Under the pieces are notes generated by a model that did not search any database, had not been told where the DNA came from, and saw only the letters and a program-made list of their open reading frames with translations. Made by a program: the position numbers and the translations under genes. A stretch of DNA of 64,000 bases. Origin: a bacterium. Its GTDB lineage: Bacteria; Electryoneota; JAOADG01. Shown here piece after piece: positions 1 through 16,838 of the stretch. Each line of letters opens with the position of its first letter. Position 1 is the first letter of the stretch. The stretch lies in contig OY820579.1 of assembly GCA_963681965.1 (NCBI GenBank), positions 2,336,001 to 2,400,000 of the forward strand, given 5' to 3'.

Positions 1-1182
1 CTGACGTGGGAAGGTGCGCAATTTACCCATCCTGAAGTGATCGACCGGGAGCTGCTCAATCGTGCCGGTTCGAAATTCGACACGAATTTTGCGCGTGTGG
101 AATTCAATCGGTTTCGGAGTCTCGATATCTTCGCGGATGTTCAGCTCACTACCAGGACCGGTGTCGATACTGTTGCGGTCGTGTGGCAATTCAAAGAGAT
201 GCCGACACTGCTGATGCTGCCGGACATCGCCAGTGAACCGGATGGTGGAATTGCGGCGGGTGGATTGATTGCCGGAACGAATTTTCTCGGTCGCAATATC
301 CGGATCGCCGTCGAGGCGTTGTGGGGAAAGACGCGGAACTATCAGTATGAATTCGAACATCCGTGGTTCGGTAACAATCGGCACGCACTGCGAATCATGG
401 GCGGATATCACGAACAGCAGAATGAGGCGGAACACTTTTTCGAGAAATATTGGGACAGCGATATCTGGTTGGAACAGTGGACTACTCGCAGCAATCATTT
501 CGATCTAGGCGGTGGTTTTTTGCTGCTCGAGGGGGATGACAGCACAAAGACGCTGCGGGTTTCCGGGAAGGATCGCAACGGGTGGTTCGGGGTTCGTGGT
601 TCAATCGATCGCCGAAACGATATCAGTCACCCTTCGGCGGGACAGTTGCTGCAACTCGAGGGGAAACAGTACTTCGGCGATTCGCATTATACCGAGTTCA
701 CATTCGATGGACGCAGCTGGTTTCCATTTACTGACCGATTGTATTGGGCACAGAGCGTATTGTGTCAATTGCGAACGAATGTAAATGATTTTCCGGTGTA
801 TCAAACGTACCGGTTGGGCGGTTCGCAGACGATTCGCGGCAACTCGTTGAAAGATTTGGGGAAGTGGCAATTTGGTAAAAATGAAGTGATTGCTACTTCT
901 GAGCTGCGGTGGCGGTTTTTGCCGCGGGTAGTGGCGGAATCGATGGGATTTGCCTATCCATTCGGGGTGGAAGCGGCGCTGTTTGGTGATGCCGGAACGG
1001 CGTGGGATGCGACGACAATTTCGCAGCGACGGATTTCGGTGGGGGGAGGAGCGGGTTTGCGATTTCTCGTACCGGCGATCAAGGAAGTGCGGATCGATTA
1101 TGCGCGTGGGGAGGGGGGTAATTCTGCTTTCTCACTTACGATTGGTGTAAAAGAGAAGTATCAGCGGTACCGGATTCGCTGA
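1..1182 (+). CDS. Omp85/BamA-TamA family outer-membrane beta-barrel protein (5'-partial)
   Basis: Frame is open from base 1. POTRA-like end (..KEMP), NFLGRN, LGGSQTIRG (loop-6 motif), ALFGDAGTAW, GGGAGLRF..VRIDYA. Confidence 0.85.
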   Translation: MTWEGAQFTHPEVIDRELLNRAGSKFDTNFARVEFNRFRSLDIFADVQLTTRTGVDTVAVVWQFKEMPTLLMLPDIASEPDGGIAAGGLIAGTNFLGRNIRIAVEALWGKTRNYQYEFEHPWFGNNRHALRIMGGYHEQQNEAEHFFEKYWDSDIWLEQWTTRSNHFDLGGGFLLLEGDDSTKTLRVSGKDRNGWFGVRGSIDRRNDISHPSAGQLLQLEGKQYFGDSHYTEFTFDGRSWFPFTDRLYWAQSVLCQLRTNVNDFPVYQTYRLGGSQTIRGNSLKDLGKWQFGKNEVIATSELRWRFLPRVVAESMGFAYPFGVEAALFGDAGTAWDATTISQRRISVGGGAGLRFLVPAIKEVRIDYARGEGGNSAFSLTIGVKEKYQRYRIR

Positions 1183-1203
1183 CCGGTTCGGTTTTCGTCG
1201 GCG

Positions 1204-1232
1204 TTGAATGTTCGCCGTGAATTGTGTATACT
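1204..1232 (+). promoter_or_regulatory. Sigma70-type promoter of tRNA-Arg
   Basis: TTGAAT (1204-1209), 17-bp spacer, TATACT (1227-1232), about 18 nt upstream of the tRNA. Confidence 0.65.
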
Positions 1233-1249
1233 ATCATTGAATTTTTTTT

Positions 1250-1323
1250 GCGCCTATAGCTCAATCGGATAGAGCACAAGCCTTCTAAGCTTGGGGTTGT
1301 GGGTTCGAGTCCCGCTGGGCGCG
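1250..1323 (+). tRNA. tRNA-Arg(TCT), intact copy at attL; CCA not encoded
   Basis: Cloverleaf: acceptor GCGCCTA/TGGGCGC, D arm GCTC..GAGC, anticodon arm CAAGC-CTTCTAA-GCTTG, T arm GTGGG-TTCGAGT-CCCGC. Confidence 0.97.
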
Positions 1324-1324
1324 C
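1257..1324 (+). repeat. attL core (68 bp)
   Basis: TAGCTCAATCGG...GCTGGGCGCGC, identical to 31788-31855. Confidence 0.95.
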
Positions 1325-1335
1325 GGCTTACAGGA

Positions 1336-1363
1336 GGAGCTAACTCCTCGGAGCTAACGGTTA
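1336..1363 (+). promoter_or_regulatory. Candidate integrase arm-type sites, left (GGAGCTAAC x2)
   Basis: GGAGCTAAC at 1336-1344 and GGAGCTAACGGTTA at 1350-1363. The same motif recurs beside attR. Confidence 0.65.
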
Positions 1364-1386
1364 TTGGAAACTTTTCGGAGTCTCCA

Positions 1387-2457
1387 ATGGCAGTTTCTCT
1401 CTTTTTACGCAAGACCGGTATCTGGTATCTCAAGATCACCGAGGATCATAAAACCACCTGGAAAAGCACTGGTTCAAAAGACCATCTATCTGCTTGTAAG
1501 ATACTCAATGAGTATAAGCGAAAAGCCCCAATCACTATTCCCAAGCCGATAAACAAACCTAAATCGATATGTCAAATAGCTGATCAATCGTTGCTTTCAA
1601 CCTTCACTCAAGAGTGTCTGGATTGGTCTGCAGCGAATCATCGGCGAGGGACTACCGATATCTATCGCAAGACCTTCGCGAATTTTTTGCGGATTGTTGG
1701 GGATGTTCCGTTATCAACAATCACTCTGCGTGTTATTGATCGCTTCAAAGCGATCCGAAGCCGCGAAGTGAAAGCGGTAACCTTGAATGTCGAATTACGG
1801 ACGATCCGCAGTGCCTTGCATCAGGCGAAGAAATGGGGTCTAATTTCGGAAGTACCGATTACCGGGAAAAATTTACTCAAAGTACCATCCGATACGATTG
1901 CACTGTCAGAGAGTGAAGTAAAACAGCTTCTGGATTCGATACAAGAGCCGTGGTTGCGTTCAATAGTACTGGTGGCAGTTTATACTGGTTTACGGAGAAA
2001 CGAGCTTTGTCGACTAACGTGGAGCGATTTTGACGAAGTCAGAGGATTATTGACAGTTCACGAATCGAAAGCGGGGAAAGCGCGGTGTATTCCGGTATCC
2101 GAGGGGGTAACCCAAATCCTGGTTAGTATACCGAAAACGGGTGACAGGATTTTCACTTTGGATGGGAAACAGCCGGTGCAAGGTTCTTGGGTATCGCATC
2201 TGTTCAAGCGGTATTGCCGGAAGTTGGGATTATCCGAGAAGATCCATTTCCACACACTCAGGCATACTTGTGCATCAATCATGGTGCGGAATGGCGTGAG
2301 TCTATTCCATACCAGTAAGGTGCTTGGTCATTCGTCGGTAGTCGTTACCGAGAAATTTTATGCACACATGGGAGTCGAGGATTTGCGGGGTGCAGTGAAT
2401 GTGGTGGGTCAATTGCTCCAATCGAATCATAGGAATGGGAATCGATTGGTGGCGTGA
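1387..2457 (+). CDS. Tyrosine integrase (Int1) with N-terminal arm-binding-like domain
   Basis: ATG 1387 after GGAG. TGLRRNE (R), HFHTLRH (HxxR), LGHSS, FYAH (Y). N-terminal WYLKITEDHKTTWKSTG resembles a three-stranded arm-binding domain. Adjacent to attL. Confidence 0.93.
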   Translation: MAVSLFLRKTGIWYLKITEDHKTTWKSTGSKDHLSACKILNEYKRKAPITIPKPINKPKSICQIADQSLLSTFTQECLDWSAANHRRGTTDIYRKTFANFLRIVGDVPLSTITLRVIDRFKAIRSREVKAVTLNVELRTIRSALHQAKKWGLISEVPITGKNLLKVPSDTIALSESEVKQLLDSIQEPWLRSIVLVAVYTGLRRNELCRLTWSDFDEVRGLLTVHESKAGKARCIPVSEGVTQILVSIPKTGDRIFTLDGKQPVQGSWVSHLFKRYCRKLGLSEKIHFHTLRHTCASIMVRNGVSLFHTSKVLGHSSVVVTEKFYAHMGVEDLRGAVNVVGQLLQSNHRNGNRLVA

Positions 2458-2543
2458 GGATAATCTGCGTCGAGACAATGTGGAACGAGTGATACAACCC
2501 GGAATTTGTATTGGGTGCTTTATCGAACCCTGACCCTAAATAT

Positions 2544-2912
2544 TCACGAATAACGGGGCTTCCGGGGCAAGGGCGAGAAGGTAATTACTCTTCCGCCAAC
2601 AATATAATATAACACTTTTTTCACATTGTCTTCAATCGTTCGAGCGGCAATATTCGGCAGCAACCAAGTCGGTAATGTCTCTTTCAACCGGTAAATCTGC
2701 CAGTAATCGACAAGAATGATTTGCTTCAACTCATAGATCAACCAGTCGGGACAATCGCATTTGCCGCGCTCGATCACACTGATGAATTGCTGGGTGACTT
2801 GCAGTCGCGAAGCTAGTTCTTTTTGTGTATAGTTACTTCGTTTCCGTGACTCGCGAATGATATTACCGATTTCGACACGGATGTCGATGGGGCTGTTTTC
2901 TACTTGATCCAT
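2544..2912 (-). CDS. XRE/Cro-family helix-turn-helix regulator
   Basis: AGGAGG then ATG 2912. IGNIIRESRKRSNYTQKELASRLQVTQQFISVIERG is a classic HTH_3 pattern. Confidence 0.85.
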   Translation of the reverse strand: MDQVENSPIDIRVEIGNIIRESRKRSNYTQKELASRLQVTQQFISVIERGKCDCPDWLIYELKQIILVDYWQIYRLKETLPTWLLPNIAARTIEDNVKKVLYYIVGGRVITFSPLPRKPRYS

Positions 2913-2943
2913 TGTTCCTCCTATTTCAAGAGTTCTAGAATGC

Positions 2944-3157
2944 TTCCGAACCTGCCGAACCTGTTTACCAGTCTGTGATATATTTTTTATATGTGAGTAT
3001 GTGTACATGTACATGTTATCACATATTTATTTTCCTTCCTTAAGGGGTGAATGAGGTTCGGCATGTCCGGCAGAAAACCGTTAAGCCCCTTAAATAGCCG
3101 TTTCCAGCTGCCGAACATCGATTATGTGAGGTTCGGCAATCGATCGAATGTCCGGCA
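2944..3157. repeat. Iteron-like repeat cluster, candidate replication origin of the island
   Basis: CCGAACCT tandem at 2944-2962. TGAGGTTCGGCA at 3052-3063 and 3127-3138. TGCCGAACA at 3109. ATGTCCGGCA at 3063-3072 and 3148-3157. AT-rich spacer. Lies directly downstream of the primase-helicase gene. Confidence 0.6.
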
Positions 3158-3201
3158 AAATCGACGAATGAAATTCATACTTTGCGATACTTTCCTAAAC
3201 C

Positions 3202-5856
3202 TCAATAAGTCTTTCGATCTTCTATATTGTTCTTATCACGCAATCGATACAATCGACATTTTCCGCGTGAAATGCTGTTATCGTGTACAATCTCGATTTG
3301 AAGATTTCCAAACAAGCGCCCTTTAATACGGTTCAGCGCTTTTCCGAGACGCGTCTGATTCGAGTGATCGGAATCTTCACCCAAGATTGAAGACAGTAGC
3401 ATTTTTCGATTACAAAGATCGAGTAATTGTTTGGTCTGAACAGGATCGCTTTTGAACTCATTCCACCAACTTTCGGTAAATTCCAGATACATCTCGGTAT
3501 CCATACTCAGCTCGTGAAATACTTCATTGCAATTACTCATGAAACCGGATATCGATACGGCATCGAAGACGCCACCAATCGTTTTCGCCCATTGTTCGAA
3601 CGACCCCAGTACTTGTTTCCCATCAGGTTTTCCAGTGTCAAGCCAAGAACGAATCAATACTAGGATAGCAGTGACCAACTCTCGACGATTGTCCATCGCC
3701 CAAAGCTCTATTTCAGAATGTTTGAAATCGGTTCGTTTCCACGGTTGACTGTCAACCGGTGTGATGCGGCACCGGATTATTCGCCGTGACAATTCTTCAG
3801 CTACATGGATGTTATTCGCAGTAATGATTATTATCATTCGATTGGGTAGGGATATTATTTCCGATCTACCGAGTAATCGCCCTGAATAATTCGTGCTAGT
3901 CAAGATTAGTGCTAACCCATCGGAATTTAGTTTTCGGTATTCTGGGAAGTTGTCGAATAATAGAATCGATGTATTTTGAATGAGTTCGGCAAGAATCATT
4001 TTCTTCAATTCATCATTATTTTCTGGAAAGGCGCGAGGCGAAATACGCTTTCCCGTCGCGATGATCGAGACGACATCACACAATTTACTTTTTCCACTTC
4101 CTGCAATCGAAGCATCGATGAGGTGGAGCGGAGTACATCCGTTAATCAAATGTCTCACAAATGGCAAGATCAACAGTGCAATAGCAGTCGAACAATCGGC
4201 ATCACGGTGTTCGAAAGGAAAATTGACCAATAAATCATCGGTGAATAGTCGCTTTGCTGCCTCGATTTCTTCCTTCGTGGGGTGCTCAGGAACTTCGATA
4301 TTCGCCAATTCATCAGGTAAGTCGAGGTAAATTCTTGAATCGGAATCATAACCGGATTGACTAAGTAATATCCCATCGCTTCTGAAGATCGGGATTCGCA
4401 CAATTGTGTCTAGTACCGGGATACGTGGATCGATCCGGGTGAGCATATCTTTCACTAAATAATCGGATGGTCTGCTCGCGCGACGTTCATTATTCTCGAC
4501 TTTAACCCAATTGGCACATCGATACAGATGACTATAGAGTTCGTTTATCCCTATCGGGTGAGTCGTAAGATGTGATTCCGACGAGCTTATTTTTAACTCG
4601 ATTAGTTGTTGACCGAACACAAATATTCTGGGTGGATCGTTTTGAGCAATAATGGCATCCCACGCATCTGCGATGACTTCCGGCAACTGTCGGTTATTGA
4701 CGATAATCGATGGCAATTGATTGTCTTGATCGGTCTCAGGTAACTGTCCGGTTGCTGGGAGAGGCACTCCAGTCTTGTCCGCTACCCGGCGGCAGGCATC
4801 GATAAAACTCTTTGCTACTCCTCGTTTGATCAGGAAATCGAAAACCGATATCGTTTGACCACTGCGAAATGAATGAAACTTACCTTTCTCAGCAGCGCCT
4901 TCGCCCGACGCGACACTAGCGGAGGGGTGACGATCACCCGATGATGAATCGGGATCGCGGCATTCCAACCAACCACCCATACTCGTTCGACCGGTTAAGA
5001 ATTCACCATATACCTCATTCAGGTCTAGTTTACCTAAAGCATGTTGACGCCATTCCGAATAGTCGTTCGGAGTTTGAGTAGATACTTCCGTCGATTCGCC
5101 ATCGGACTTCGATTTTTGTAGCATTGTAGAATTTCGATCGAGGTGTTTGATTGCTTGTTGCACTTTTTCGACTGAGATCGTTTCGAAAAGTTCCGGTTCG
5201 TACTCTTCGAACCCGTAGTCATCGTCTAGTTTGTAGAAACGGTTGCAACCGGGCTTTGCATCATACCACAATGGCAGCCAGACGGCATTTCCGCAACCAT
5301 TATTGCTGATCCGTTCGGTTTTAGGAAAGACCTCAATACCACGATTATCGCCGGGACTTGCATACCCGCCGTTTTCGAGTTGCTGATTGGGTGGACATAA
5401 TAGAAACCCAAGCCGACGTGCATCCTTCGCAATAATTGATTCTTCGAAAAAGAGCCAGAGATGATAACCGTGACCTCGCCCTGAACGCTCGATGAAACAG
5501 GGTAAGGACACGCTAAGAGCTGTTTCATAAGCCGCTTTCACGGCACTTTCAGGATCACGCAAAGCGTCTTTATGTTCGGGTCCACCATCGAAATCGAGAC
5601 AGAGCCATTTTGTCAAACCTTCGTTGTTAGGAGAGTAAGTCGCGAGTCGAAAACAACCGGTTTTCTGATGAGTTCCTCGGTCATTTGTGATTTCTACAGT
5701 ACTATGATACAGTTTATTCCCGGTTATATGACCTAATATCAGTTGATCCAAGTACCCATTCACATGAATCGGATGGGGATTTTTTCCAACCATGATGGCA
5801 ATTTTATCAGTTCGATTGAAGAACGCATTTCGGATCATTTCGACATTTTGATTCAT
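3202..5856 (-). CDS. AEP (TOTE-like) primase-polymerase fused to an SF3-type helicase
   Basis: WLCLDFD (DxD), ERSGRGHGYHLWLFF, EVFP..GNAVWLPL. Central Zn-finger-like region. Walker A AGSGKS, Walker B ILLFDN, sensor IITANN. Confidence 0.85.
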   Translation of the reverse strand: MNQNVEMIRNAFFNRTDKIAIMVGKNPHPIHVNGYLDQLILGHITGNKLYHSTVEITNDRGTHQKTGCFRLATYSPNNEGLTKWLCLDFDGGPEHKDALRDPESAVKAAYETALSVSLPCFIERSGRGHGYHLWLFFEESIIAKDARRLGFLLCPPNQQLENGGYASPGDNRGIEVFPKTERISNNGCGNAVWLPLWYDAKPGCNRFYKLDDDYGFEEYEPELFETISVEKVQQAIKHLDRNSTMLQKSKSDGESTEVSTQTPNDYSEWRQHALGKLDLNEVYGEFLTGRTSMGGWLECRDPDSSSGDRHPSASVASGEGAAEKGKFHSFRSGQTISVFDFLIKRGVAKSFIDACRRVADKTGVPLPATGQLPETDQDNQLPSIIVNNRQLPEVIADAWDAIIAQNDPPRIFVFGQQLIELKISSSESHLTTHPIGINELYSHLYRCANWVKVENNERRASRPSDYLVKDMLTRIDPRIPVLDTIVRIPIFRSDGILLSQSGYDSDSRIYLDLPDELANIEVPEHPTKEEIEAAKRLFTDDLLVNFPFEHRDADCSTAIALLILPFVRHLINGCTPLHLIDASIAGSGKSKLCDVVSIIATGKRISPRAFPENNDELKKMILAELIQNTSILLFDNFPEYRKLNSDGLALILTSTNYSGRLLGRSEIISLPNRMIIIITANNIHVAEELSRRIIRCRITPVDSQPWKRTDFKHSEIELWAMDNRRELVTAILVLIRSWLDTGKPDGKQVLGSFEQWAKTIGGVFDAVSISGFMSNCNEVFHELSMDTEMYLEFTESWWNEFKSDPVQTKQLLDLCNRKMLLSSILGEDSDHSNQTRLGKALNRIKGRLFGNLQIEIVHDNSISRGKCRLYRLRDKNNIEDRKTY

Positions 5857-6842
5857 CTTTCACCTCGCAATCCTATCCGGGTCGGTGGAACAATATTCAT
5901 CATGTTTGGTCGTTGTAGTGACGGTCGGCTTCCTAGTTGTCGATCGATGATCTCAACTGCGCCGCGAAGATCTTCCACTGAGATATGGGCATAAAACTTT
6001 TCAGTGACTACAACCGAGGAGTGTCCCAATACTTTCGAGGCGTGATACAAACTGACTCCATTCGCAACCATGATACTGGCGCAGGTGTGTCGCAATGTGT
6101 GGAAGTGGATCTTTTCGGATAACCCGAGTTTTCGACAGTAGCGTTTGAACAGGTGAGTCACCCAGGAGCTACCGATCATGTGCTCACGATCGATTGAGAA
6201 GATGTATTGTGAAGTATGGGGTAATTGCTCCAACACTACGCACACTGACTCGGAAACGGGGATACAACGCGACTTACCTGCTTTGGACTCGTGGACGGTG
6301 AATAGTCCTCGGACATCGTCGTAATCGTTCCAAGTCAACCGACAGATCTCGTTGCGGCGAAGACCGGTGTGAACCGCGAGTAGCACCATCGCTTTGAACC
6401 ACGGTTCCTGAATCGCTTCGAGTAACCGATTGACTTCAATCTCAGATAATGCAACCGTGTCGCTGGGAACCTTGATCAAATGCTTTCCACTGATCGGTAC
6501 TTTGTTGATCAACTCCCAACGCTTCGCTTGATTCAACGCACTCCGAATTGCCCGAAGTTCGACATTCACCGATACCGGTTTGACGCTGGTCAATCGCGCT
6601 GCTTTGTATTGCTCGATCAATCGCTCGGTGATCTTGACGATGGGAATGTCACCAAAGATATCAATCAGATTCCGAAAGGTATTCCGGTAGATTGTTGTTG
6701 TGCCGGGTCGATGATTCGAGCGCGACCACGACAAGCACTCGCATATAAAGGAAGAAAGAGTAACCGACTCAATTGTGCTGATAACTGAACCACTGTGTCG
6801 CTTTTTTCGACGTTGCGAATAATTAAATATTGTTTCGTTCAT
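5853..6842 (-). CDS. Tyrosine recombinase (Int2), paralog of Int1 lacking the arm-binding N-terminus
   Basis: TGLRRNE, HFHTLRH, LGHSS and FYAH all intact. Colinear with the Int1 core. Stop overlaps the primase start (ATGA). Confidence 0.92.
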   Translation of the reverse strand: MNETIFNYSQRRKKRHSGSVISTIESVTLSSFICECLSWSRSNHRPGTTTIYRNTFRNLIDIFGDIPIVKITERLIEQYKAARLTSVKPVSVNVELRAIRSALNQAKRWELINKVPISGKHLIKVPSDTVALSEIEVNRLLEAIQEPWFKAMVLLAVHTGLRRNEICRLTWNDYDDVRGLFTVHESKAGKSRCIPVSESVCVVLEQLPHTSQYIFSIDREHMIGSSWVTHLFKRYCRKLGLSEKIHFHTLRHTCASIMVANGVSLYHASKVLGHSSVVVTEKFYAHISVEDLRGAVEIIDRQLGSRPSLQRPNMMNIVPPTRIGLRGER

Positions 6843-7008
6843 TGCACTCCACCTTACGTATTTTTAACGAAAAGTAGAGCATCACATTGTATATTGATAG
6901 GTGTGGAAAAATTCTAGGTAGGATTTTAAGGTTATGATAATAGTAATGATACAACGACTGGAGGAGTGGAAATTCCTCGCCTCGATATTTTAATCGATGA
7001 AAAATGAA

Positions 7009-8172
7009 CTATGAAGATTCGCGAGCTTTTCCCAAGCAATCTTTTGAATAGAGTACAGCTTGATCGATGTCAGATATCAAATTTTGAATTTGGCTTCTGG
7101 AAAGATACAATCGGAATTCTACTGAATCCCGATTCAACCTTACTCGATCGAACAATCTAGTCTTTATTTTAGCTGAAAGATCTTTCAGCAATCGGCTCCA
7201 ATAAGTCTGAAGGCGCTTATGAACCTCCACAGACCTTGTACTCGGCAACTTGATCCAACCTTTATTATGCCACTCAATCAAGCGATCCGATAACTCTTGC
7301 TCAGTAACGAAAAGATAGGAGTGCGTTCCACTACCGCATTCTTTACCATTGAATAATGCAAATAGAAAGAACAATTGAATACGCCCTAGTTGCATTGTGT
7401 GTGGCTGTATCGCCTTGCCGATTAATTCACACGCAAACCCTTTAACAATTTTGTGACCCGGAAAACGTCTTAAGATTAGCTCTGCCTCGTCGGAAATCTG
7501 AATTTGATCTAATGATGAGAGTACCGATCCAAGGTCGATTGATGGATATGGTTCACATAACAGATCCATTATCCGATAGACATAGACTGCCGATTTCGCT
7601 AGATTCGATCGATCCATTATATCGATAGTTGGTGATTCATTACAAAGAACTAGATAGGGATTGTGTCTACTAGCAATGTCTAACAAGCGATGGAATCGAT
7701 CGGTGAAAGACAAATGGTCGGTATTTGTTGCAAAGCAAATCGAAACACAAAAAGTTGAGTACGACGTCTCAGCAAACTTATATATATCGGTCACCACCTC
7801 ATTTTGTTTGCTATCGACGCATTCCCACTGATTCTCGCTAGCGAGCCATTTCAGAAAATGGAATCGTGAAAATCGGAACTGACGAATCGATTCAGACGGG
7901 ATTGATCGAGATTCCACGCTTCCATACGGACAAACCAATAATGACTGAACGTCACTGCGATAATAGATCTTCAGAAGGCATTCATCGCACTCACAGGGTT
8001 CCAGACAAGGGAGTTCTTCTTGTGGTTGGATTTCCTGAATCAACCCCAACGCCAATAGCGACGCGATGCAATCCGTTTCGCCCCATTCCTCGAAATTGAA
8101 ACCGGTGATCGTATCGATATCGCAACCGTGAGTCGTTTTAAGAATGCGATCAATGAGAGTGTTCGAAAACAA
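7009..8172 (-). CDS. Hypothetical protein with Cys cluster (possible Zn ribbon)
   Basis: 387-aa ORF overlapping the upstream gene. PCLEPCECDEC...VCP. The start codon is uncertain. Confidence 0.7.
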   Translation of the reverse strand: MFSNTLIDRILKTTHGCDIDTITGFNFEEWGETDCIASLLALGLIQEIQPQEELPCLEPCECDECLLKIYYRSDVQSLLVCPYGSVESRSIPSESIRQFRFSRFHFLKWLASENQWECVDSKQNEVVTDIYKFAETSYSTFCVSICFATNTDHLSFTDRFHRLLDIASRHNPYLVLCNESPTIDIMDRSNLAKSAVYVYRIMDLLCEPYPSIDLGSVLSSLDQIQISDEAELILRRFPGHKIVKGFACELIGKAIQPHTMQLGRIQLFFLFALFNGKECGSGTHSYLFVTEQELSDRLIEWHNKGWIKLPSTRSVEVHKRLQTYWSRLLKDLSAKIKTRLFDRVRLNRDSVEFRLYLSRSQIQNLISDIDQAVLYSKDCLGKARESS

Positions 8173-9301
8173 AGTGATTCCTCTTGAGGTGTTCCATGAT
8201 GCGATTTTGTAGATAGCGTCGATCGAATTTAGCGGACGATGGCGGCTTAATCGTCACATCTTTCTTTTTCTCTTTCCCTTGCCAGTAAAAGGAAAATCTC
8301 AGTGTCACCGACCTAATAGCGAGTTTCTTTGGATCGAAATCAGGATGAGAGGCTTGCAGATACTTCAACAAATCGAAAAATCGAAAGGTTGCCGATACCG
8401 ATCCGCGCTTGCCATCCGAGAAGACAATCTCAGTTACCTTAACACCTCTGCAATCGCGATCCCACTGATAGTTGAATTCGAAGTCAAAGCCCTGCTCAAT
8501 GATTGGGTCTAACGTGTAATTAAGCTCTAATGACTTTTTATCCAACCATTCGTCATTTACGATATGGTGAGCAAACAAAGTCGCAAGTGTTTTCTTCTCC
8601 TTCGCTGTCCGCGCATTCACCAATATTTTCGCTTGTTCAGGTTGGAAGCATAAATAATCGAGCTTGGCTTCGCGTAGGATCTTGCTATTCACATCGTTTT
8701 TTTCGACAACCTGAACGCTATTTTTCGCTTTACCGTGAAGAATCAGAAAATGGAAACCGTTCGCATCTTGATATTGACGGACTTTACAGAAAGCACCTTG
8801 GAGTCTTCCGTTATAAAATGACTTCAGAGCAGATTCGTATAAAGTCACTTTCTCAGGATCTGGGATTATCGAAATAGTTTTATTTCCATTGTATTCACCG
8901 GAAAATTGTGCGATCTGTAGTTGAAGACGATCCACACACACTTCGAAAACTTCGTGATACTGAAGATAAGCAACCATTGCTATTTCGGCACGAGTCGGTT
9001 GTTTTTGTTCCTGTGCCAAATAGATCGCTCGGATTGGAGACTTCAAATCGTTGGATACCTCCATTAAGGTCTCGAACCCTTCTTCGCTGGCTAAATCGGA
9101 GATCATCAGTAGATTGTAAATGAGTTTATCGGATAAGAACTCATAGTTTTCCAACAATGCTTCAAACAGCTCCTTACTAGATAATTCGCTTAGCTTCAAC
9201 CCTTCCGTTTCTGGGAATTGCGAAAAGAACTGCTTCAATATTGGTTGTGATATTCCATCGAGAACGCGCTGGTTGATAAAGTAATTGACATTCTTACGCA
9301 T
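8150..9301 (-). CDS. Hypothetical protein resembling an uncharacterised family found in integrative elements
   Basis: AGGAG then ATG 9301. Motifs FLILHG, LDYLCFQP..ILVNART, YTLDPI, VTIKPPSSAKFDR recalled from mobile-element hypotheticals (not verified). Confidence 0.75.
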   Translation of the reverse strand: MRKNVNYFINQRVLDGISQPILKQFFSQFPETEGLKLSELSSKELFEALLENYEFLSDKLIYNLLMISDLASEEGFETLMEVSNDLKSPIRAIYLAQEQKQPTRAEIAMVAYLQYHEVFEVCVDRLQLQIAQFSGEYNGNKTISIIPDPEKVTLYESALKSFYNGRLQGAFCKVRQYQDANGFHFLILHGKAKNSVQVVEKNDVNSKILREAKLDYLCFQPEQAKILVNARTAKEKKTLATLFAHHIVNDEWLDKKSLELNYTLDPIIEQGFDFEFNYQWDRDCRGVKVTEIVFSDGKRGSVSATFRFFDLLKYLQASHPDFDPKKLAIRSVTLRFSFYWQGKEKKKDVTIKPPSSAKFDRRYLQNRIMEHLKRNHFVFEHSH

Positions 9302-9348
9302 CGTCAATCTCCTTTGAATAAGGATCGTTGCAACTAACCTATTCCCCA

Positions 9349-9384
9349 TAAAACAAGCAACCGCCCCACCTTCCGGTAGGGCGG
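9349..9384 (-). terminator. Probable intrinsic terminator after the 1527-aa secreted protein gene
   Basis: Minus strand reads CCGCCCTACC-GGAA-GGTGGGGCGG followed by TTGCTTGTTTT. Confidence 0.65.
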
Positions 9385-9407
9385 CTTGAAATTCGCAATT
9401 AATTGAA

Positions 9408-12400
9408 TTACTTCAACAGAATCGCTTTCTTCGTCGCTACAAATCCTGGTGTCTTCATCGTAATGAAGTAAATACCGGTACTAACTTTCATACCGCTGGA
9501 GTTATTGCCGTCCCAGTTGATTCGATAACTGCCGGTAGTATAGTCTTTATCGGCGAGCGTCTTCACCAACCGACCTAGTGCATCGTACACCGATACCGAT
9601 ACCCGACTTGACTTCGGAACTTCAAATCGAATTTGAGTGGTGTTGTTGAATGGATTCGGATAGATTGAACTGAGTGTAAATGCCTTCGGAATCGCAACTG
9701 CAGTTTCATGCGATGGTGGCTTGATTGCCTTGGAAAGCTTCGCGATCTTCGACAATGCCGTCATGCGGTTCGATTGCTGTGTCTGATAGTAACCGGCAAT
9801 ATCGCCTCGTTTCGAGGCAGGCGTCGGACGCAACAAACTCGAGACCAGCATGTCATACTCAATTCGTAGCGAGTCGTCACCGTTGCCATACGCGAGAATC
9901 GAATCGCGAAACGCATCGGCAGTCAGGAATTCGTGCATCGCGTCGAAGCCGTAACTCTCGTTGTAATACTTCGTCATGCTGTATGGATCGCCTACCGGCG
10001 GCAACTGCGGATTCAATTCCGACAGTCGTTGCAATGCCGCGGCACCGGCAGCAGTGGAATCGCCCGATTGCGCCAGCGTCAGATTGTAATAGTACAAAGC
10101 GCTATCGAGCATATCCTGACTGAAATAGATGTCGCCGCGCAACAAACTGCCGCCGAGATCGGACATGTAGTCGCCCAGATTCGTTCCGCACGACGAAGAG
10201 TCGAATACAGTATTCAAGCCCCAATACGCCCCATTGCTGGGCAACAAGCCACCTAACGGATTCGGATCCTTGTCGAAAGAGTTGCCTTTCAGATTAAGAT
10301 AGAACGGCGTGCCGACTTGCTGCATGTAATAGTTCAAATGGTTTCCATTTTGGTCGATAATACCGGTAAAGGTGTTCTCGCCATAGAGGAAAACCGGTGT
10401 CGAGTTGTCGACCAACACCATCGGGAAGTCGAGGATACCGGAGAAATCGTTCGACCCGACCTGTGAGTTGTCGGGATCGTAGAACGATGCCGTCGAGTTG
10501 CCGGTAAGATATACAGCATGATGATCGTTACCGGAGAAGCTGTTGCAGGTAAAGATCGTCGAAGCGGCATACCCGAAGAAACCGGATTTGTAATTGGTGG
10601 CGTTAATTCCGTTATCGCTGATGTTGCAGTGATCGATCCGACCGCCGCCATTCGACCAAACGAATGCGGCATCGCGATTGTTGTGCACCAGATTGTTATA
10701 GAATTGCGCTTCGCTGTACAAACCATTCACACCGATCGTACAATTGGAGATCTCGCTGTTGTCGATCTGAACTTTACTGGAAGTGGTATACAGGTCAATT
10801 CCGATGGTGCTGTTATTATTGCCAACGATATTGCAACCGTTGATCGTTGTCTCCTTCGGTTTCCACAGTTCCAGCGCTTTCACCGATTGGTTGTTGAAGT
10901 TGCAGCTTGTGATCGATTGATAAGAACCGTCGAGGGCATCGAATGAGGAAATCGCCTTCTCGCCGCCGGTAAAAGTGCAGTGCGACAACGCTACTGTATC
11001 CGCAAGCGAATTGACGGATATCGCCGTCGCACAATTCTCGAATTCCGCCGAATCGAGTTGAATTTGACCACCGGTGGATTTGATGGCATTGGAAAATGAT
11101 ACAAATTTTGCAAATCCTCCAATTACTTTACCACCCTCTTCAACTTCGATCGATGGTGCATCATTTTGGTGACCAATCAAGAATGCATAATTTTCGATTG
11201 GTGTTGGTGCGCTATCATGACCCATAAACTGCACGACAGTACCACTTGGAACATGAATTTTTCCACCATAAGTAAATGATATTCCTGCTCCCGGGTCAAT
11301 TTTTAATGTGTCGTTTGATGGAGGTTCTACAACATCGAAAACACAAAATGAACCTGAAATCCGAGCAGTCTGTTTGACAATAGAACCAAAACTAACGGAT
11401 ATGTCGCCAGTCGATTCATCATAAAAAATATTAGGTTCAGTTGAATTCTCAACCCTAAATCGAATATGATCTTGACCGGTCATTACTTCAGCGAAATATA
11501 CTCTTTCACGGTAACAATCATAAGTATTATTAAAACTTGGACTGAAAATGTCACCGGTAACATTTGTCGCAAGAGTTGACCAAGTATTACCCGAATTGTA
11601 CGATACAAGAATATTAACTGCTTGCGGTGTCGAATTAGTTGAATACATGTATTCGCGCCACCTAACTGGAATCGAGTTTGTACGATAGCGATCACCTGGA
11701 TTGGGTGTTGTGATTTGAACAACATTATGACGAAATGCTGTTATACCACTATTTGTACAAACAAAAGCACGACCTTGAATTTTTGGCGCTTCAGCAACGC
11801 CAAAAAAACTGGAATTATGTACCCAGTCGTCTGACGGCATACACACTTTTCTACCGTCACTTATATCATAAGAACCCATATTAAAACCGTCATTCCACGC
11901 AACTCCCCGTTGTAAATGGTATCGTAGATTGGCAATTGTAATTCCCGTCGCAGTCAACCCATAAACGTAATCGAATCTAGGATTGCCTACCATGCCAATA
12001 TTAGTGCCGGTAAGACCGATATATGTCCAACCTCCATATCTAGGATTTTGCACAGTTCGGAAATACTGCCATTGATGTAAACCAGTTGGTAAATTTGGAG
12101 GAGTTTCGTTAGTGGTTTCACATGAAATGATGTCTGGATAAATCGTAGCTCCATCAGCAGAATAGAACACAACACCACCAATAGTATTGTGACCGAGAGT
12201 TCGGGGATCCATAATGTTAAATTGATTATTGTTCAAATTAATCGGTCGAAATCCCCCGCAATTATTTCTTCCAATTAATAAGTGCGCTAAGCTTAGGTCA
12301 ATCGAGATTGGAGAGAGACCTTCCTCCATTTCCAGTTGGTTAATATTGGTGAAAGAACCGTCGGCAGGATTAAATCGCAACTTATGAACTGATGTTGCAG

Positions 12401-13991
12401 TGGTAGCAAAAACAATTATTTGATTAGTACCTAGAACAGTAAAGTTCATCGCTTTCAAATAAGTAACTCCCGGAAGGTGATAACCGGTTATGCGAGTTAG
12501 AGTTGCTGGTTCAAACACATCGATCCAATTTGCTCCAGCTGCGAATATGTACTGACTCAGAACAACGCCATTCGTGGGAACATTGGTTGCATTACAGATT
12601 GAAGAATAAGGGGTTGAGGTTAGAATTTGATCGGTTTCAGTGAATGTGAATGCGGTTGGATCGGTCATTGATATTGATATTTTCCGAATACCGCGTTCGC
12701 AAGCAGCAAATAGCATTACCGGAGTGTTCGATGAATTATCTGACCGATAGAAACATAATTCATTCGGGCTTCCTCCCGCTCCCGGACAGTTAGTATAAGT
12801 CCGATATGCGTTGCCGTTAAATACAACAATATTCTGATATGGTCCATTAGCGATATAAATTGGACTAGTTGTCGAGGACGGATTCACTAATACGATCGAC
12901 AATGGACTACCGTTAAAGTTTCGTTTTGAAAATACTGGTGAAGATTGATCCAAATACCATTGTATTGCGTCCGAACCGGTATAAGGACTTGCTAGAAGAT
13001 CAAATTGGACTAAATCTGCTCCGTTTCCCGAAGAAGAATTTTTTACAATTCGAACGTGAGCTTTAAATAATGCAGTTGCAGCTTGCTCTCCAATGCAAGT
13101 CATTGCAACTGCAGGTCCAAGATCATTTCCAGAAAATTGGAGGACGTCATAATCACTATTAAAGTACCAATTTCCCATATTCGATCGGTGCGTTATTACG
13201 ATCCGGTCTGTCAATGAAAGGATGATAAATTCCGATCCAAAAACAGCAGGAAGGTAATACAGTGCTTTTAATGGAACATCAGATTCATTTATATAAGTCA
13301 GAGGTTCCCAGTAAGGATTAGTTCCGCTGTAATGGTAATCTAACAAGTAATTTATACTCGGTGTTCCGGAAACGAACCCACCGATTAACAGTTGACCGGT
13401 TGCACCAAAGACCGGTTTGCAAAGTGTAGCATTATTTTGTGAAGAAACCACAGTAAATTGATTAATATCCCCGTACTGACTATACGATCCGACCCCGATC
13501 TGAGTATCTCCCGAAATTAAGATTTTTCCATCCCTAGCCAAGAGATACTTCCACTGACCAGTAGGAAGTGTTTCTACATCAAGCTGTGAAGGTGAGAATG
13601 GGTCGTCGGTCAAATCATATGTTTTTACTTCTTGAGTAGTAAGTTGAAACAAAATCTGTCCGACACGGAAAACATCTTTTGTGTTATCGTTTTGCGAGAA
13701 TTCATTTACACAAAAATACGTCTCCGATTCAGTGATTGCTGTGGGATTATTAAGAGGTGTTCGAAGAATTCGAACTCCACCGGTTCCAGAAGCTACATAA
13801 ATGTACTGATAAGATGTATTCGAGTATGTTACCATGCCAGATACATCACCCCAATATTGATAGTTTTCAACAGGAGTTGGTGGTGTGTAGCTGCCACATG
13901 GAATAATATTTCGAGCTTGGGATAGTGATGAGGTGATTAGTAAACTAACAATGATGCCAATCATCGACAGATAACGAAGAATACTTCTCAT
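9408..13991 (-). CDS. Large secreted protein: beta-propeller-like N-half, right-handed beta-helix, T9SS/FlgD-type C-terminal domain
   Basis: Signal peptide MRSILRYLSMIGII... after GAGGGAG. Parallel beta-helix repeats (CTF, CNF, CNI..N). C-terminus YPNPFN..YDALGRLVKTL..WDG..STGIYF..ILLK. Confidence 0.85.
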   Translation of the reverse strand: MRSILRYLSMIGIIVSLLITSSLSQARNIIPCGSYTPPTPVENYQYWGDVSGMVTYSNTSYQYIYVASGTGGVRILRTPLNNPTAITESETYFCVNEFSQNDNTKDVFRVGQILFQLTTQEVKTYDLTDDPFSPSQLDVETLPTGQWKYLLARDGKILISGDTQIGVGSYSQYGDINQFTVVSSQNNATLCKPVFGATGQLLIGGFVSGTPSINYLLDYHYSGTNPYWEPLTYINESDVPLKALYYLPAVFGSEFIILSLTDRIVITHRSNMGNWYFNSDYDVLQFSGNDLGPAVAMTCIGEQAATALFKAHVRIVKNSSSGNGADLVQFDLLASPYTGSDAIQWYLDQSSPVFSKRNFNGSPLSIVLVNPSSTTSPIYIANGPYQNIVVFNGNAYRTYTNCPGAGGSPNELCFYRSDNSSNTPVMLFAACERGIRKISISMTDPTAFTFTETDQILTSTPYSSICNATNVPTNGVVLSQYIFAAGANWIDVFEPATLTRITGYHLPGVTYLKAMNFTVLGTNQIIVFATTATSVHKLRFNPADGSFTNINQLEMEEGLSPISIDLSLAHLLIGRNNCGGFRPINLNNNQFNIMDPRTLGHNTIGGVVFYSADGATIYPDIISCETTNETPPNLPTGLHQWQYFRTVQNPRYGGWTYIGLTGTNIGMVGNPRFDYVYGLTATGITIANLRYHLQRGVAWNDGFNMGSYDISDGRKVCMPSDDWVHNSSFFGVAEAPKIQGRAFVCTNSGITAFRHNVVQITTPNPGDRYRTNSIPVRWREYMYSTNSTPQAVNILVSYNSGNTWSTLATNVTGDIFSPSFNNTYDCYRERVYFAEVMTGQDHIRFRVENSTEPNIFYDESTGDISVSFGSIVKQTARISGSFCVFDVVEPPSNDTLKIDPGAGISFTYGGKIHVPSGTVVQFMGHDSAPTPIENYAFLIGHQNDAPSIEVEEGGKVIGGFAKFVSFSNAIKSTGGQIQLDSAEFENCATAISVNSLADTVALSHCTFTGGEKAISSFDALDGSYQSITSCNFNNQSVKALELWKPKETTINGCNIVGNNNSTIGIDLYTTSSKVQIDNSEISNCTIGVNGLYSEAQFYNNLVHNNRDAAFVWSNGGGRIDHCNISDNGINATNYKSGFFGYAASTIFTCNSFSGNDHHAVYLTGNSTASFYDPDNSQVGSNDFSGILDFPMVLVDNSTPVFLYGENTFTGIIDQNGNHLNYYMQQVGTPFYLNLKGNSFDKDPNPLGGLLPSNGAYWGLNTVFDSSSCGTNLGDYMSDLGGSLLRGDIYFSQDMLDSALYYYNLTLAQSGDSTAAGAAALQRLSELNPQLPPVGDPYSMTKYYNESYGFDAMHEFLTADAFRDSILAYGNGDDSLRIEYDMLVSSLLRPTPASKRGDIAGYYQTQQSNRMTALSKIAKLSKAIKPPSHETAVAIPKAFTLSSIYPNPFNNTTQIRFEVPKSSRVSVSVYDALGRLVKTLADKDYTTGSYRINWDGNNSSGMKVSTGIYFITMKTPGFVATKKAILLK

Positions 13992-14008
13992 AGCAATCTC
14001 CCTCAAAG

Positions 14009-16162
14009 TTATTTGATTAGTGAAATCGGATAAATCCGATTTGAGTTATTCACTCGTAAATGAATGAAATATTTTCCACTGGCAAATTTTTCTGAGTGCC
14101 AGTTAAATTGATAGAATCCTGATGAATACTGATCGCATGCAACGACAGCCACACTTTTTCCCAAAACGTTGAAGATTTCAAGTCGAAGCATACTCGCTGT
14201 CGGCAATGATAACCTAATATGAAGAATCGAGTTGAATGGGTTCGGAAAGGTCGTAAGTTGAAACGTTTCGACAACGGGATGAAATTCTACCAGTTCTGAG
14301 GATGTCACCGAGGCTGTCGAGCGATAATTACTGTAGTAGAGACAATTCATGGAATCGAGATAGAGCTTCTTGTAATCACTTTCAGACGTTTCAAGAAGAG
14401 TCTCCCAATGAGAATTGTTATGTAACAACCGTTTCACATATTGATGAATATTGGAGGTTAAATCGGTATTATTCTCGATTATAAATAAATCGCCTTGAAT
14501 ATTATCGAGAAAACAGTTTATCGATTGGTTGGATAATAGAAATGGGACTGTGAGCCAATCGACACCGCCATTGTTCGATTTAAAATGACCTCTGGCGGTT
14601 TGCGCGAAGACTGCATGTCCAGACCAAATCTTGAGAGGTTGTTCATTAAGAAGCTGATACTGAGACGTTCGATGCCAACTTGTGCCTAGATTCGAAGAAC
14701 GTTCGAGGTATGTCGTATCATTAGAAAATGTCAACTGATAGATTGTATTGGACGAATCACATCCAATGATGGAATTTTCAGATATTAAATGCCAACTGCA
14801 ACCTTGATTGGTCGAATATTGATTCCCTCGGATCTCTGTTCCATCAGGTAAATAACAGAAATCGCCAGTACTTTGAGCCGTATCTCGAGACCAATTCTCA
14901 CCATGATCGTTTGAACGAAAAATATCGTCATTGGTTGCTAAAATGATCCTTCCATTTTGTTTCTTACAGATTCCCTTAATTCCAATCGATTGTCTGCCAT
15001 CGATACAAATCTTACGAGTGATCGTTTGCCAAGTCGTACAATGGTCGCGACTAATCAACAAACCGAGATCTGCAGTGATCATCGAACCGTTATTTGTTTC
15101 CAGCCAATACTCATTTCGATAAGCTTCGAATGCAGAAAAACATTCAATCCAATTAACTCCTTGATCAGTAGAACGATAAGTAGCCTCATCAGCACGAATG
15201 ATTGTTCCAGATTGTGATACACCGAACGTTGGGTATTCCGATATTAGATTCGGTGAAAAATATGTCCATGTCGTTCCGAAATCGGTGGACCGCGCTAAGT
15301 CACTTCGATTTAGAGAAGGTCTGAAGACCTGAACGTAAATTCTTCCTAATGAATCAATAGAGAAGTCATCACTTACTAACTCAAATCCCGGCACCGACTG
15401 CCAATGTAGCCCCCCATCGAGCGACCGATACAAACCAGTCCAAGCAGATCCACTTGCTAGGATTACGGTATCGTTGACAGCTTCCATATCGTTAAAATGA
15501 AAAGGTCCTGGTACCGCAATGGTTTGCCAGTTTTCCCCGTTGTCAGTTGATCGTGCGACATAATGGTCCGGTGCCCAGCCGGTATCAAGTGGTAGAGAGC
15601 CGCTGCATAGAATTGTATGGTTAGGAGTAATTGCAAGGCAATTGTTGAAACGGACGGGAATTGATCGCGATACCCAGGATACACCATCGTTGGTTGAGAT
15701 AAATAACTTGCTGGTATCGATTTGTAAATATTCGTAAGACATCACATAATGGCGTCCATCGCTAAATACACGATGTTGTTTTAAATCGTAGCTACAAAAT
15801 ATTGGCTCGTTTATCCAGTTTATGCCGTTATTTGTCGTTGAGAATGTTCGGAATTCTCCTGTATATAACCGTGTAAAATACAATTTTCCCGTTCGGTCGA
15901 TGCAAATCGAAGGCAATGGCGAATCGTTCCAATTCTCAAGTCGACCTACGAAAATCCAAGTTACACCATCATCAGTTGATCGAATAAGATTGTAACTTCC
16001 ATGACCCTCAGACCAAATTAACACATTGTTATTCACGCCATTTTGAACTAACCTGGTTAGTCCTCCGAAACTGCTAAGTTGTTCAAAAGTAGGTTGCCCA
16101 AGTCCTACTTGGGAGCTTAACATTGCGAGAACAGTAAACATCCATTTAGTTAGATTGCTCAT
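14009..16162 (-). CDS. Secreted BNR/Asp-box beta-propeller protein with T9SS-type C-terminal domain
   Basis: Many (R)STDxGxTW Asp-boxes, a signal peptide, and FPNPFN..FNVLGK..ASGKYF C-terminus. Confidence 0.88.
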   Translation of the reverse strand: MSNLTKWMFTVLAMLSSQVGLGQPTFEQLSSFGGLTRLVQNGVNNNVLIWSEGHGSYNLIRSTDDGVTWIFVGRLENWNDSPLPSICIDRTGKLYFTRLYTGEFRTFSTTNNGINWINEPIFCSYDLKQHRVFSDGRHYVMSYEYLQIDTSKLFISTNDGVSWVSRSIPVRFNNCLAITPNHTILCSGSLPLDTGWAPDHYVARSTDNGENWQTIAVPGPFHFNDMEAVNDTVILASGSAWTGLYRSLDGGLHWQSVPGFELVSDDFSIDSLGRIYVQVFRPSLNRSDLARSTDFGTTWTYFSPNLISEYPTFGVSQSGTIIRADEATYRSTDQGVNWIECFSAFEAYRNEYWLETNNGSMITADLGLLISRDHCTTWQTITRKICIDGRQSIGIKGICKKQNGRIILATNDDIFRSNDHGENWSRDTAQSTGDFCYLPDGTEIRGNQYSTNQGCSWHLISENSIIGCDSSNTIYQLTFSNDTTYLERSSNLGTSWHRTSQYQLLNEQPLKIWSGHAVFAQTARGHFKSNNGGVDWLTVPFLLSNQSINCFLDNIQGDLFIIENNTDLTSNIHQYVKRLLHNNSHWETLLETSESDYKKLYLDSMNCLYYSNYRSTASVTSSELVEFHPVVETFQLTTFPNPFNSILHIRLSLPTASMLRLEIFNVLGKSVAVVACDQYSSGFYQFNWHSEKFASGKYFIHLRVNNSNRIYPISLIK

Positions 16163-16682: not shown

Positions 16683-16838
16683 TAAAATAGATCCCGACGC
16701 GAGTTTGCGCCCATCGAACGTGACGCGATAGCTGCCACTATGCTGTTTCTCATCCACCAGCGTCAGCACACCGCGATCCATCTGATCGATTAGTATTTAT
16801 TTCACTCTACCGGTTATCGGAATCAGAACCTGGATTCC
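16683..16838 (-). pseudogene. Remnant of a T9SS-type C-terminal domain
   Basis: Minus strand translates GIQVLIPITGRVK*ILIDQMDRGVLTLVDEKQHSGSYRVTFDGRKLASG, then a frameshift into IYF. Contains an internal stop. Confidence 0.7.

Follow-up and report, generated by a model that had tools for sequence, protein, structure and literature searches.

We analyzed a 64,000-nucleotide stretch of a bacterial genome of the phylum Electryoneota (contig OY820579.1, positions 2,336,001 to 2,400,000 of the forward strand; hereafter the window), in which two paralogous tyrosine recombinases, Int1 and Int2, are encoded. We find that both genes lie inside one 30.5-kb island at a tRNA-Arg(TCT) gene, with a 68-nt direct repeat at both ends. 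Int1 and Int2 evidently share their origin in one clade of arm-bearing, tRNA-targeting integrases; Int2 has lost the arm-binding domain of about 45 residues, and it evidently has a selected job of its own. As a possibility that we favor without much confidence, this domain loss would have made Int2 a simple recombinase, which acts on an island-internal site and serves the replicating circle.

Int1 is a three-domain integrase (arm-binding, core-binding and catalytic; 356 aa) encoded at 1387-2457 on the forward strand, and Int2 is its arm-less paralog (core-binding and catalytic; 329 aa), encoded at 5853-6842 on the reverse strand. The genes are convergent, lie 3.4 kb apart and belong to separate transcription units. 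The Int1 open reading frame (ORF) as listed begins within the tRNA, and the ATG at 1387 with GGAG in front is the sensible start. The ATG of Int2 has a good ribosome-binding site, a Shine-Dalgarno-like AAGGTGGAG upstream. Performing BLASTP, we found 188 of 287 residues identical (66%) with 0 gaps (E 2e-144), which agrees with the gap-free, roughly two-thirds identity that an earlier note on this DNA had claimed. That note had also described a stretch identical in protein and changed at synonymous sites. Indeed, the 30-residue HLFKRYCRKLGLSEKIHFHTLRHTCASIMV is the same in both proteins, while 24 of its 90 nucleotides differ, all synonymously. Over the 287 aligned codons, the nucleotide identity is 62% (36% at third positions), the synonymous difference pS is saturated at 0.79, and the nonsynonymous divergence dN is 0.31. 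Both proteins matched the tyrosine recombinase family PF00589 (E 1.3e-31 for Int1 and 5.1e-34 for Int2) and the core-binding (SAM-like) domain PF13102 in Pfam. We aligned 11 sequences, namely Int1, Int2, four close relatives and five outgroups. R203, K228, H289, R292, H315 and Y325 (Int1 numbering) are among the invariant columns of this alignment, including in Int2 and in its ortholog Int2' from a second island of the genome. We take these residues to be the recombinase catalytic set, all kept in Int2.

The N-terminal LF.R..WY...GK..WKSTG segment is found in every sequence of the alignment except Int2 and Int2'. In the AlphaFold2 model of Int1 (mean pLDDT 80), this N-terminus folds into strands 2-7, 13-19 and 22-27 and a helix at 33-45, with a pLDDT of 82-88 over residues 2-45. 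A disordered linker (47-63) follows, and helices at 70-149 form the core-binding region ahead of the catalytic domain. The best Foldseek match of the model is the full-length lambda integrase (1z1b_B; 344 alignment columns, E 1.2e-13), and the matches include Cre and Xer. The predicted structure hence gives Int1 the N-terminal domain of a three-stranded sheet plus helix that defines complex integrases; no Pfam arm-domain model matched this N-terminus at E 0.01 or better. Int2 begins 27 residues ahead of the core-binding domain. It has no N-terminal domain of the complex type and shows the two-domain make-up of simple recombinases, and Int2' likewise is without the arm domain. The 166 nt upstream of Int2 hold no arm-domain remnant in any of the three frames. 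The claim that only Int1 has the arm N-terminus thus stands, by the alignment and by the upstream frames. A cryptic arm domain in Int2, which the earlier note had named as a weak point of its own reading, is ruled out by the start of Int2 and the remnant-free frames.

The island at tRNA-Arg(TCT) and its relative at tRNA-Arg(ACG)

We placed both genes in one island because the repeat at 1257-1324 recurs with 100% identity at 31788-31855 and has no third copy; a 21-mer search allowing up to 3 mismatches did not find one in the window. The integration target on the attL side is an intact tRNA-Arg(TCT) gene at 1250-1324 on the forward strand (ARAGORN; Rfam RF00005, 69 bits, model positions 1-71). 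The left repeat, the att core block in the tRNA, corresponds to tRNA positions 8 to 75 plus one base. The right copy (attR) is a partial tRNA, matching only positions 8-63 of the Rfam model. A tRNA target, a direct repeat of the tRNA 3' part at the far end and Int1 beside the tRNA together define a tRNA island. In a genome of the same genus, the contig stops 300 nt past the tRNA, matching neither island flank.

The backbone runs in the order attL, Int1, a helix-turn-helix (HTH) gene, a conserved non-coding block, a primase-helicase and Int2, and the cargo then extends up to attR. The island replication gene is an 884-aa AEP primase-helicase at 3202-5856 on the reverse strand (PF22548 AEP-TOTE; phrog_19930 DNA polymerase/primase; phrog_10537; PADLOC PrimPol models). 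The Int2 stop overlaps the primase-helicase start in an ATGA. The C-terminal tails of Int2 and Int2' are about 20 residues longer, reaching into the primase start. The ATGA coupling, already claimed in the earlier note, is seen again in the second island, and the sequence supports a putative translational coupling of Int2 to the primase, with Int2 as the first gene of an Int2-primase operon.

Searching relatives for the same architecture, a check that the earlier note had suggested, we found it again in the same genome (a single contig of 4.24 Mb). This second island (island B) lies at tRNA-Arg(ACG) (G000:C1:2134040-2155019) and has a 59-nt repeat at its ends. Its backbone is identical in order. 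Int1' is 79% identical to Int1, and the intact, 121-aa HTH' (about 90%, judged by eye), primase' (73%) and Int2' (85%) likewise resemble their counterparts. Past its attR, we noticed a 42-nt partial att copy and the remnants of a third Int1-like gene (G000:C1:2134040-2155520), which may be read as a sign of tandem accretion.

The earlier note had allowed that Int2 might belong to a separate nested element. We rejected this possibility, for which we find no support: there are no module-flanking repeats (no 10-mer direct or inverted repeat is shared between 2440-3060 and 6780-7100 around the Int2-primase module), only two att copies exist in the window, and the same four-gene backbone recurs in island B.

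Descent of Int2 and selection on it

We built a maximum-likelihood tree of the shared region, with a midpoint root only and without members of the Xer, Cre and Brujita-type subgroups. Six integrases of the genome form one clade with moderate support (82/91). They fall into three pairs of unsettled branching order, namely Int1 with Int1' (82/96), Int2 with Int2' (93/97), and Int-Pro with Int-His (92/91), the last two from islands at tRNA-Pro and tRNA-His. The nearest relatives of Int2 in this sampling are arm-bearing integrases, and a descent from a simple subgroup was not recovered. The pairing in the tree implies that the Int1/Int2 split predates the split of the islands and that the arm domain was lost before the islands separated.

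The ratio of nonsynonymous to synonymous substitution rates (dN/dS) is 0.129 for Int2/Int2' (dS 0.83), 0.213 for Int1/Int1' (dS 0.74) and 0.168 for the primase pair (dS 1.12). The purifying selection on both paralogs that the earlier note had read from synonymous changes is thus borne out on orthologous pairs, at 0.13 (Int2) and 0.21 (Int1). The value for Int2 indicates a selected, working gene, and we ascribe to Int2 its own job because the pairing with Int1 was kept in the second island. These results bear on the idea that Int2 is the leftover integrase of a fused or nested related element, either with no present role or acting as a DNA-binding regulator only. The ancient Int1/Int2 divergence with its saturated synonymous sites would agree with such an origin, as would the tandem accretion known at these tRNAs from the Int1-like remnant and partial att past island B attR, and the mosaic backbone, of which the segments show 91%, 78% and 73% nucleotide identity. 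However, a dN/dS of 0.13 was maintained across a dS of 0.83 with all catalytic residues kept, the gene order and the ATGA coupling are unchanged in both islands, and there is no third att copy and no repeat around the module. Moreover, a mere DNA binder needs no conserved catalytic tyrosine. We thus consider a leftover Int2 very improbable.

The domains of the two integrases changed in different ways between the islands. Int1 and Int1' are 61% identical in the arm domain, 68% in the core-binding domain and 97% in the catalytic domain, whereas Int2 and Int2', which have no arm domain, are 86% identical in the core-binding and 90% in the catalytic domain. In the core-binding domain, 31/96 residues changed in the Int1 pair versus 13/96 in the Int2 pair (Fisher p 0.003); in the catalytic domain the counts are 6/181 versus 19/181. 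Core-binding windows gave a dN/dS of 0.19-0.23 for the Int1 pair versus 0.05-0.10 for the Int2 pair. Between Int1 and Int2 themselves, the core-binding domains are 59% identical.

We compared these patterns with the tRNA targets. The whole anticodon arm differs between the two tRNA-Arg genes, and the T-arms are nearly identical (GGGTTCGAGTCCC vs GGGTTCGAATCCC). The att repeats of all four islands, the tRNA-Pro and tRNA-His islands included, begin at or before tRNA position 30. We infer that the arm-bearing integrases read the tRNA anticodon arm. Int2 would read something common to both islands, since its core-binding domain is conserved while that of Int1 diverged and the target tRNAs differ. 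A target common to both islands appears to fit the Int2 pattern better than the differing anticodon-arm core. The T-arm common to both tRNAs is one possible target of this kind. The suggestion of the earlier note that Int2 recognizes similar core sites is hence not supported, given the core-binding identities of 68% for Int1/Int1' (with 97% in the catalytic domain) and 86% for Int2/Int2'.

The nucleotide identity between the islands is a mosaic, with 73% from the tRNA into the start of Int1 (1250-1483), 91% at 1819-2927 and 78% at 3016-6740. As the 5' module of Int1 is diverged (about 73%) and the 3' part is 91% identical, the switch between tRNA-Arg targets went with an exchange of the 5' module. 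Int1 and Int1' thereby offer a clean case of target switching, in which the arm and core-binding modules were exchanged and the catalytic domain stayed almost identical.

Candidate sites and possible roles of Int2

Just past the 3' end of the primase gene lies a non-coding block (3053-3164) that is a candidate origin or recombination site. It is identical to island B at 104/112 nt (93%) with no indels, compared with 78% for the adjacent genes. The block contains five TYCGGCA repeats, at 3057, 3066, 3109 (inverted), 3132 and 3151; in the tRNA-His island, the gap between the HTH and primase genes has no such motif. Two of the five make up an 11-8-11 inverted repeat at 3109-3138 (TGCCGAACATC / GATTATGT / GAGGTTCGGCA), which is a candidate core-type site for Int2. 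Island B keeps 21/22 arm bases of this repeat and differs at 3/8 spacer bases, and the spacer changes account for 3 of the 8 differences in the whole 112-nt block. Both matches to the repeat in the 4.24-Mb genome (2/2) lie in the two islands. Cre/loxP of P1, ResD of F and Xer resolve multimers by means of two-domain recombinases, and their sites consist of inverted arms around a 6-8 bp spacer. The geometry of 3109-3138 is that used by simple tyrosine recombinases and would also suit an origin, so that the repeat is a candidate only. Upstream of Int2, nothing is conserved between the islands. An inverted pair at 2440-2455 / 3569-3584 was rejected, being at chance level by our own estimate.

We propose the following division of tasks. 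Int1 would be the directional integrase of the island, acting on the tRNA anticodon-arm core together with arm sites. Int2 would be an arm-independent, simple recombinase of the Cre, Rci or ResD type, produced along with the replication protein, and would act at a site inside the island that is common to both islands. We consider the 3109-3138 inverted repeat, part of the iteron block beside the primase gene, the likeliest such site. The job of Int2 would probably be to keep the excised replicating circle monomeric, or some other processing of replication products. We favor this role for Int2 on account of the core-binding pattern and the primase coupling. For multimer resolution, the relevant features are a candidate repeat beside the primase that is conserved in both islands and exclusive to them.

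Several observations weigh against this proposal. The tRNA-His island has another primase-helicase with the same HTH and no Int2, which implies that a dedicated resolvase is not a general need of these islands. The core-binding contrast is partly a product of mosaic history: synonymous sites, too, differ more in the 5' part of Int1, and the Int1 3' part was recently homogenised (91% nucleotide identity, 1819-2927). The 11-8-11 geometry is not rare, occurring 679 times in the genome (0.16 per kb), and the primase may just as well bind 3109-3138 as an origin or iteron element. Everything is based on two islands of one genome. Finally, the assembled contigs of four public runs, compared with window positions 1-20000, contain no recombination product, that is, no backbone excision, circle or inversion joint. 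Of 8 public runs, 5 contain all or part of the stretch, in the form of assembled contigs, and none listed is of RNA. In the contigs compared, the attR copy accounts for the loose ends at 1257 and 1324, and a skip from 1483 to 2391 matches the Int1-like remnant beside island B. A single 'opposite strands' joint, 9744 / 16693, in one contig of run X4 (side 43), joins regions of two related sorting domains of the type IX secretion system (T9SS).

Could Int2 act at the att sites? Arm-binding domains and excisionases are the accepted source of integrase direction. Pfam and PHROGs detected no excisionase-type family among the island proteins tested, although diverse recombination directionality factors (RDFs) could escape such a search, and the backbone gaps hold no further conserved small ORF. 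The remark in the earlier note that no excisionase was to be seen therefore holds. In one account, Int1 integrates via its arms and Int2 recombines the attL x attR cores, replacing an excisionase (Xis), either alone or in mixed tetramers with Int1. The four-gene backbone common to both islands lacks an RDF- or Xis-like gene, and the 66% identity of Int2 to Int1 makes a related target plausible. The near-same T-arms of the two target tRNAs matter here as well, because a T-arm core would fit the conserved Int2 core-binding domain. In P4 and the staphylococcal pathogenicity islands (SaPIs), the excisionase gene lies upstream of the primase in an induced operon, and Int2 occupies the very slot that holds the excisionase there. 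An arm-less, directionless integrase also has a precedent in Brujita Int, as described in the accessible part of PMC8138268. Nevertheless, Int1 and Int2 share only 59% identity in their core-binding domains, and that of Int1 follows the change of tRNA target while that of Int2 does not. The sister islands manage with one integrase and no Int2, and a directionless enzyme on a bare T-arm might act at many tRNA genes. On balance, this division of labor at the att sites, the main rival of the role that we favor, seems unlikely, if still well worth considering. We find rather unlikely its use for directionality, in which the arm-bearing Int1 would perform one-way integration and the arm-less Int2, switched on with the primase-helicase, would perform or license core x core excision. 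If it is true that Int2 excises the island, this would be a new solution to directionality, in which excision and replication are coupled via one operon. If Int2 resolves multimers, as we favor, the island would show how an integrase can take on Cre-like housekeeping within a single element. An island with a selected arm-bearing integrase and an arm-less, replication-wired copy is in any case a natural experiment on the purpose of the arm domain, and Int2 might be of use as a compact recombinase that does not depend on arms and has a short site.

That Int2 is translationally coupled to the primase in each island could also mean that it is a strand-specific nicking or processing enzyme that starts island replication or transfer with the primase-helicase. 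Alternatively, Int2 might be a cargo-exchange enzyme, since the homology between the islands breaks about 100 nt inside the Int2 5' end and different two-gene cassettes lie beyond. A relaxase of the tyrosine recombinase type, MobK, has been published and serves as a precedent, as far as the accessible portion of that report goes (PMC8152469). Yet Int2 keeps the full set of recombinase residues and its two domains, and it is 66% identical to an integrase of the working type. We saw no conjugation or mobilization genes in the island by Pfam, PADLOC or PHROGs, the backbone-cargo border is without conserved sequence, and homologous recombination suffices for cargo replacement between conserved flanks. 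Such a nicking or cargo-exchange enzyme is thus improbable in our opinion.

We also considered that Int2 might be an invertase, Rci-like or of the phase-variation type, acting on some segment of the island. Rci, though its integrase group is arm-bearing, has no arm domain (in the sections consulted of PMC8138268), and large surface or secreted proteins are present among the cargo. However, an inverted-repeat search of both islands gave no shared site pair above chance level, and the contigs of the four runs are without a strand-switch joint attributable to the backbone. An inverting Int2 is extremely improbable.

Distribution, related systems and the rest of the island

We checked how far Int2 and its coupling to the primase extend. 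The only integrases more than 55% identical to Int2 are Int2', Int1, Int1', Int-Pro and Int-His, all of the same genome. Among 79 genomes of the phylum, 7 gave a match at E 1e-40 or better, and those outside the own genome are 33-39% identical. A search of 5.8 billion proteins returned 12 relatives at E 1e-30 or better, of which the six close ones are all from the own genome, and among 1.84 billion cluster representatives the next best is 43% identical. About 30 of the best 150 representatives are without an N-terminal extension, as judged from start offsets. Seven of nine such sequences begin with a Met just ahead of the core-binding domain; these are distant relatives (31-40% identity). The arm-less proteins among them indicate that arm-domain loss is not unique in the wider family.

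Relatives of the primase occur in 8/79 genomes of the phylum, with a recombinase upstream in 0/8 contexts. A first primase scan of genome contigs returned nothing. A profile of five primases gave 69 loci, of which 34 with long matches were tabulated, and the family is widespread, in Planctomycetota, Myxococcota and others. At full-length loci with at least 1.3 kb of upstream sequence, a tyrosine recombinase lies upstream of the primase in 0/30 and downstream in 15/30, as detected with a recombinase profile built from 11 sequences that may miss distant ones. The 15 downstream recombinases comprise 7 that are co-oriented within about 420 nt and 8 that are on the other strand, 1.7-4.5 kb off. The absence of upstream recombinases from these 30 loci makes the Int2-primase coupling peculiar to the present islands.

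Compared with lambda-type complex integrases, Int1 is alike in its three domains, its tRNA target, its 68-nt att repeat and the repeated candidate arm sites that flank the core; unlike in those systems, the island keeps a second, arm-less copy of the enzyme, and no excisionase is visible. The accessible part of Smyshlyaev et al. 2021 splits tyrosine recombinases into simple and arm-domain-bearing ones and reports Xis only with the latter (PMC8138268). In the same sections, Rci is arm-less within the arm-bearing IntP2 group and has a non-integrative role, inverting plasmid DNA segments. Int2 resembles Rci in a secondary loss of the arm domain in an integrase lineage, presumably with a change of job, and relative to that account it would be the second arm-less case in the arm-bearing group. 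Unlike Rci, however, Int2 is primase-coupled and shares its element with an arm-bearing paralog, and we found no invertible segment in the inverted-repeat search. The Brujita integrase is described there as simple, arm-less and directionless. Int2 shares with it the arm-less tyrosine recombinase form and the setting of an integrating element with no recognizable RDF, but Brujita Int is the sole integrase of its element, whereas here an arm-bearing paralog is present at the att site.

Int2 is two-domain like Cre, ResD and Xer, and its candidate 11-8-11 geometry beside replication functions resembles the site expected for them; in contrast, Int2 nests among arm-bearing integrases and not in those subgroups. 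XerC/XerD and the Tn554 TnpA/TnpB are paralogous, co-oriented recombinase partners on one element or site, none with an arm domain. Int1 and Int2 are likewise paralogous recombinases in one element, but they converge, differ in domain make-up and, compared with such heteromeric pairs, stand in separate transcription units and have differently evolving core-binding domains. The nearest element type is the pipolins. These are described, in the part of PMC11551731 consulted, as self-replicating tRNA-gene islands with direct repeats, defence cargo and often two tyrosine recombinases, and the present island is likewise a replicative defence island at a tRNA gene. According to that part, the pipolin recombinases come from different families (IntSXT and IntP2) and the replication gene is PolB, whereas here we see a with-arm/without-arm paralog pair and an AEP primase-helicase. 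In the literature searched for this arrangement, within the terms and library used, we found no paper describing an integrase with an arm-less, primase-coupled paralog.

The sister islands carry single integrases of the Int1/Int2 clade, both arm-bearing. The tRNA-His island (11.5 kb, G000:C1:1667840-1679440) has a perfect 46-nt repeat, and its primase-helicase is NrS-1-like plus D5_N. Its cargo consists of a type III restriction-modification system, RES and TnsA-like genes. The tRNA-Pro island (5.3 kb, G000:C1:2863316-2868687) has a perfect 50-nt repeat and neither primase nor Int2, and its cargo is T9SS only. With a single integrase and perfect repeats in each, these islands suggest that an Int1-type enzyme can manage without a partner. 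The other half of tRNA-Pro adjoins yet another island, which has a 40%-identical integrase (2885442-2886281) and a 50-nt repeat at 2886543-2886592. A third primase-helicase homolog (G000:C1:2510071-2512773, 42% identical) lies in a phage-like gene row with no same-family integrase nearby, and similar rows are present in two other genomes of the phylum.

Both att arms of the present island show candidate sites. The P' arm (1325-1386), conserved in island B, may hold arm-type sites; its part at 1336-1386 contains two AGCTAACGG-type repeats and a hairpin at 1363 covering the Int1 ribosome-binding site. The P arm (31560-31787), a candidate for arm-type or accessory attP sites by the island B alignment and the inverted repeats I8 and I20, has ATCACA-type repeats, a run of 36 nt without a difference between the islands, and two AGCTAACGG sites in inverted orientation. 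In blastn, 31611-31746 is 78% identical to island B. The 18-nt inverted repeat I8 pairs 1351-1368 with 31731-31748 at 94% complementarity.

The Xre-type HTH protein (2544-2912, reverse strand; PF01381 and PHROGs repressor families) has 122 aa from its likely start, MDQVEN. The ORF as listed extends to 3014, and the 121-aa island B ortholog starts at the same Met, right after a stop codon. A 38-nt palindrome upstream of the gene (2989-3026; inverted repeat I2, 83% complementary) is a candidate operator, and island B carries an IS5-like insertion sequence (IS) at this position upstream of HTH'. The ORF at 3051-3326 (+) is spurious, since its reading frame is not conserved in island B. A promoter and terminator scan gave counts at shuffle level.

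The cargo as a whole spans 7009-31545 and, judged by Pfam, PADLOC and composition, largely consists of putative defence-type genes, plus T9SS-sorted secreted proteins and unknowns. Two co-oriented genes of 387 and 399 aa (7009-9349) lie directly upstream of Int2 and gave no Pfam or PADLOC match and weak PHROGs matches only. Their slot varies between the islands while its flanks are conserved, as in a defence hotspot; island B has a QueC-like 684-aa gene and a 265-aa gene there, and beyond the differing cassettes the islands again share a T9SS gene end (92%). Two secreted proteins with T9SS sorting domains (9408-16162, Pfam) follow. The conserved stretch at 16685-16789 was rejected as a site, being an intergenic remnant of a C-terminal sorting domain of the T9SS; the 3' end of an island B gene matches it at 78% identity. 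The defence-type cargo includes a PLD+SNF2 helicase (16939-20121; best PADLOC model 'HKD+Snf2'), a type IIG/PglX-like methylase fused to a Schlafen AlbA_2 domain (20100-23897) and a TIR-SLOG protein (23992-26067). Three low-GC genes (26269-31545; 604, 182 and 997 aa; 28-33% GC) gave no match in Pfam, PADLOC or PHROGs. Just outside attR lies an IS3-type element (32562-33712) with an HTH_Tnp_1 ORF and an rve ORF. Over 145 residues compared, the latter has a 100% protein copy at G000:C1:1687336-1688211 and a 93% copy within island B.

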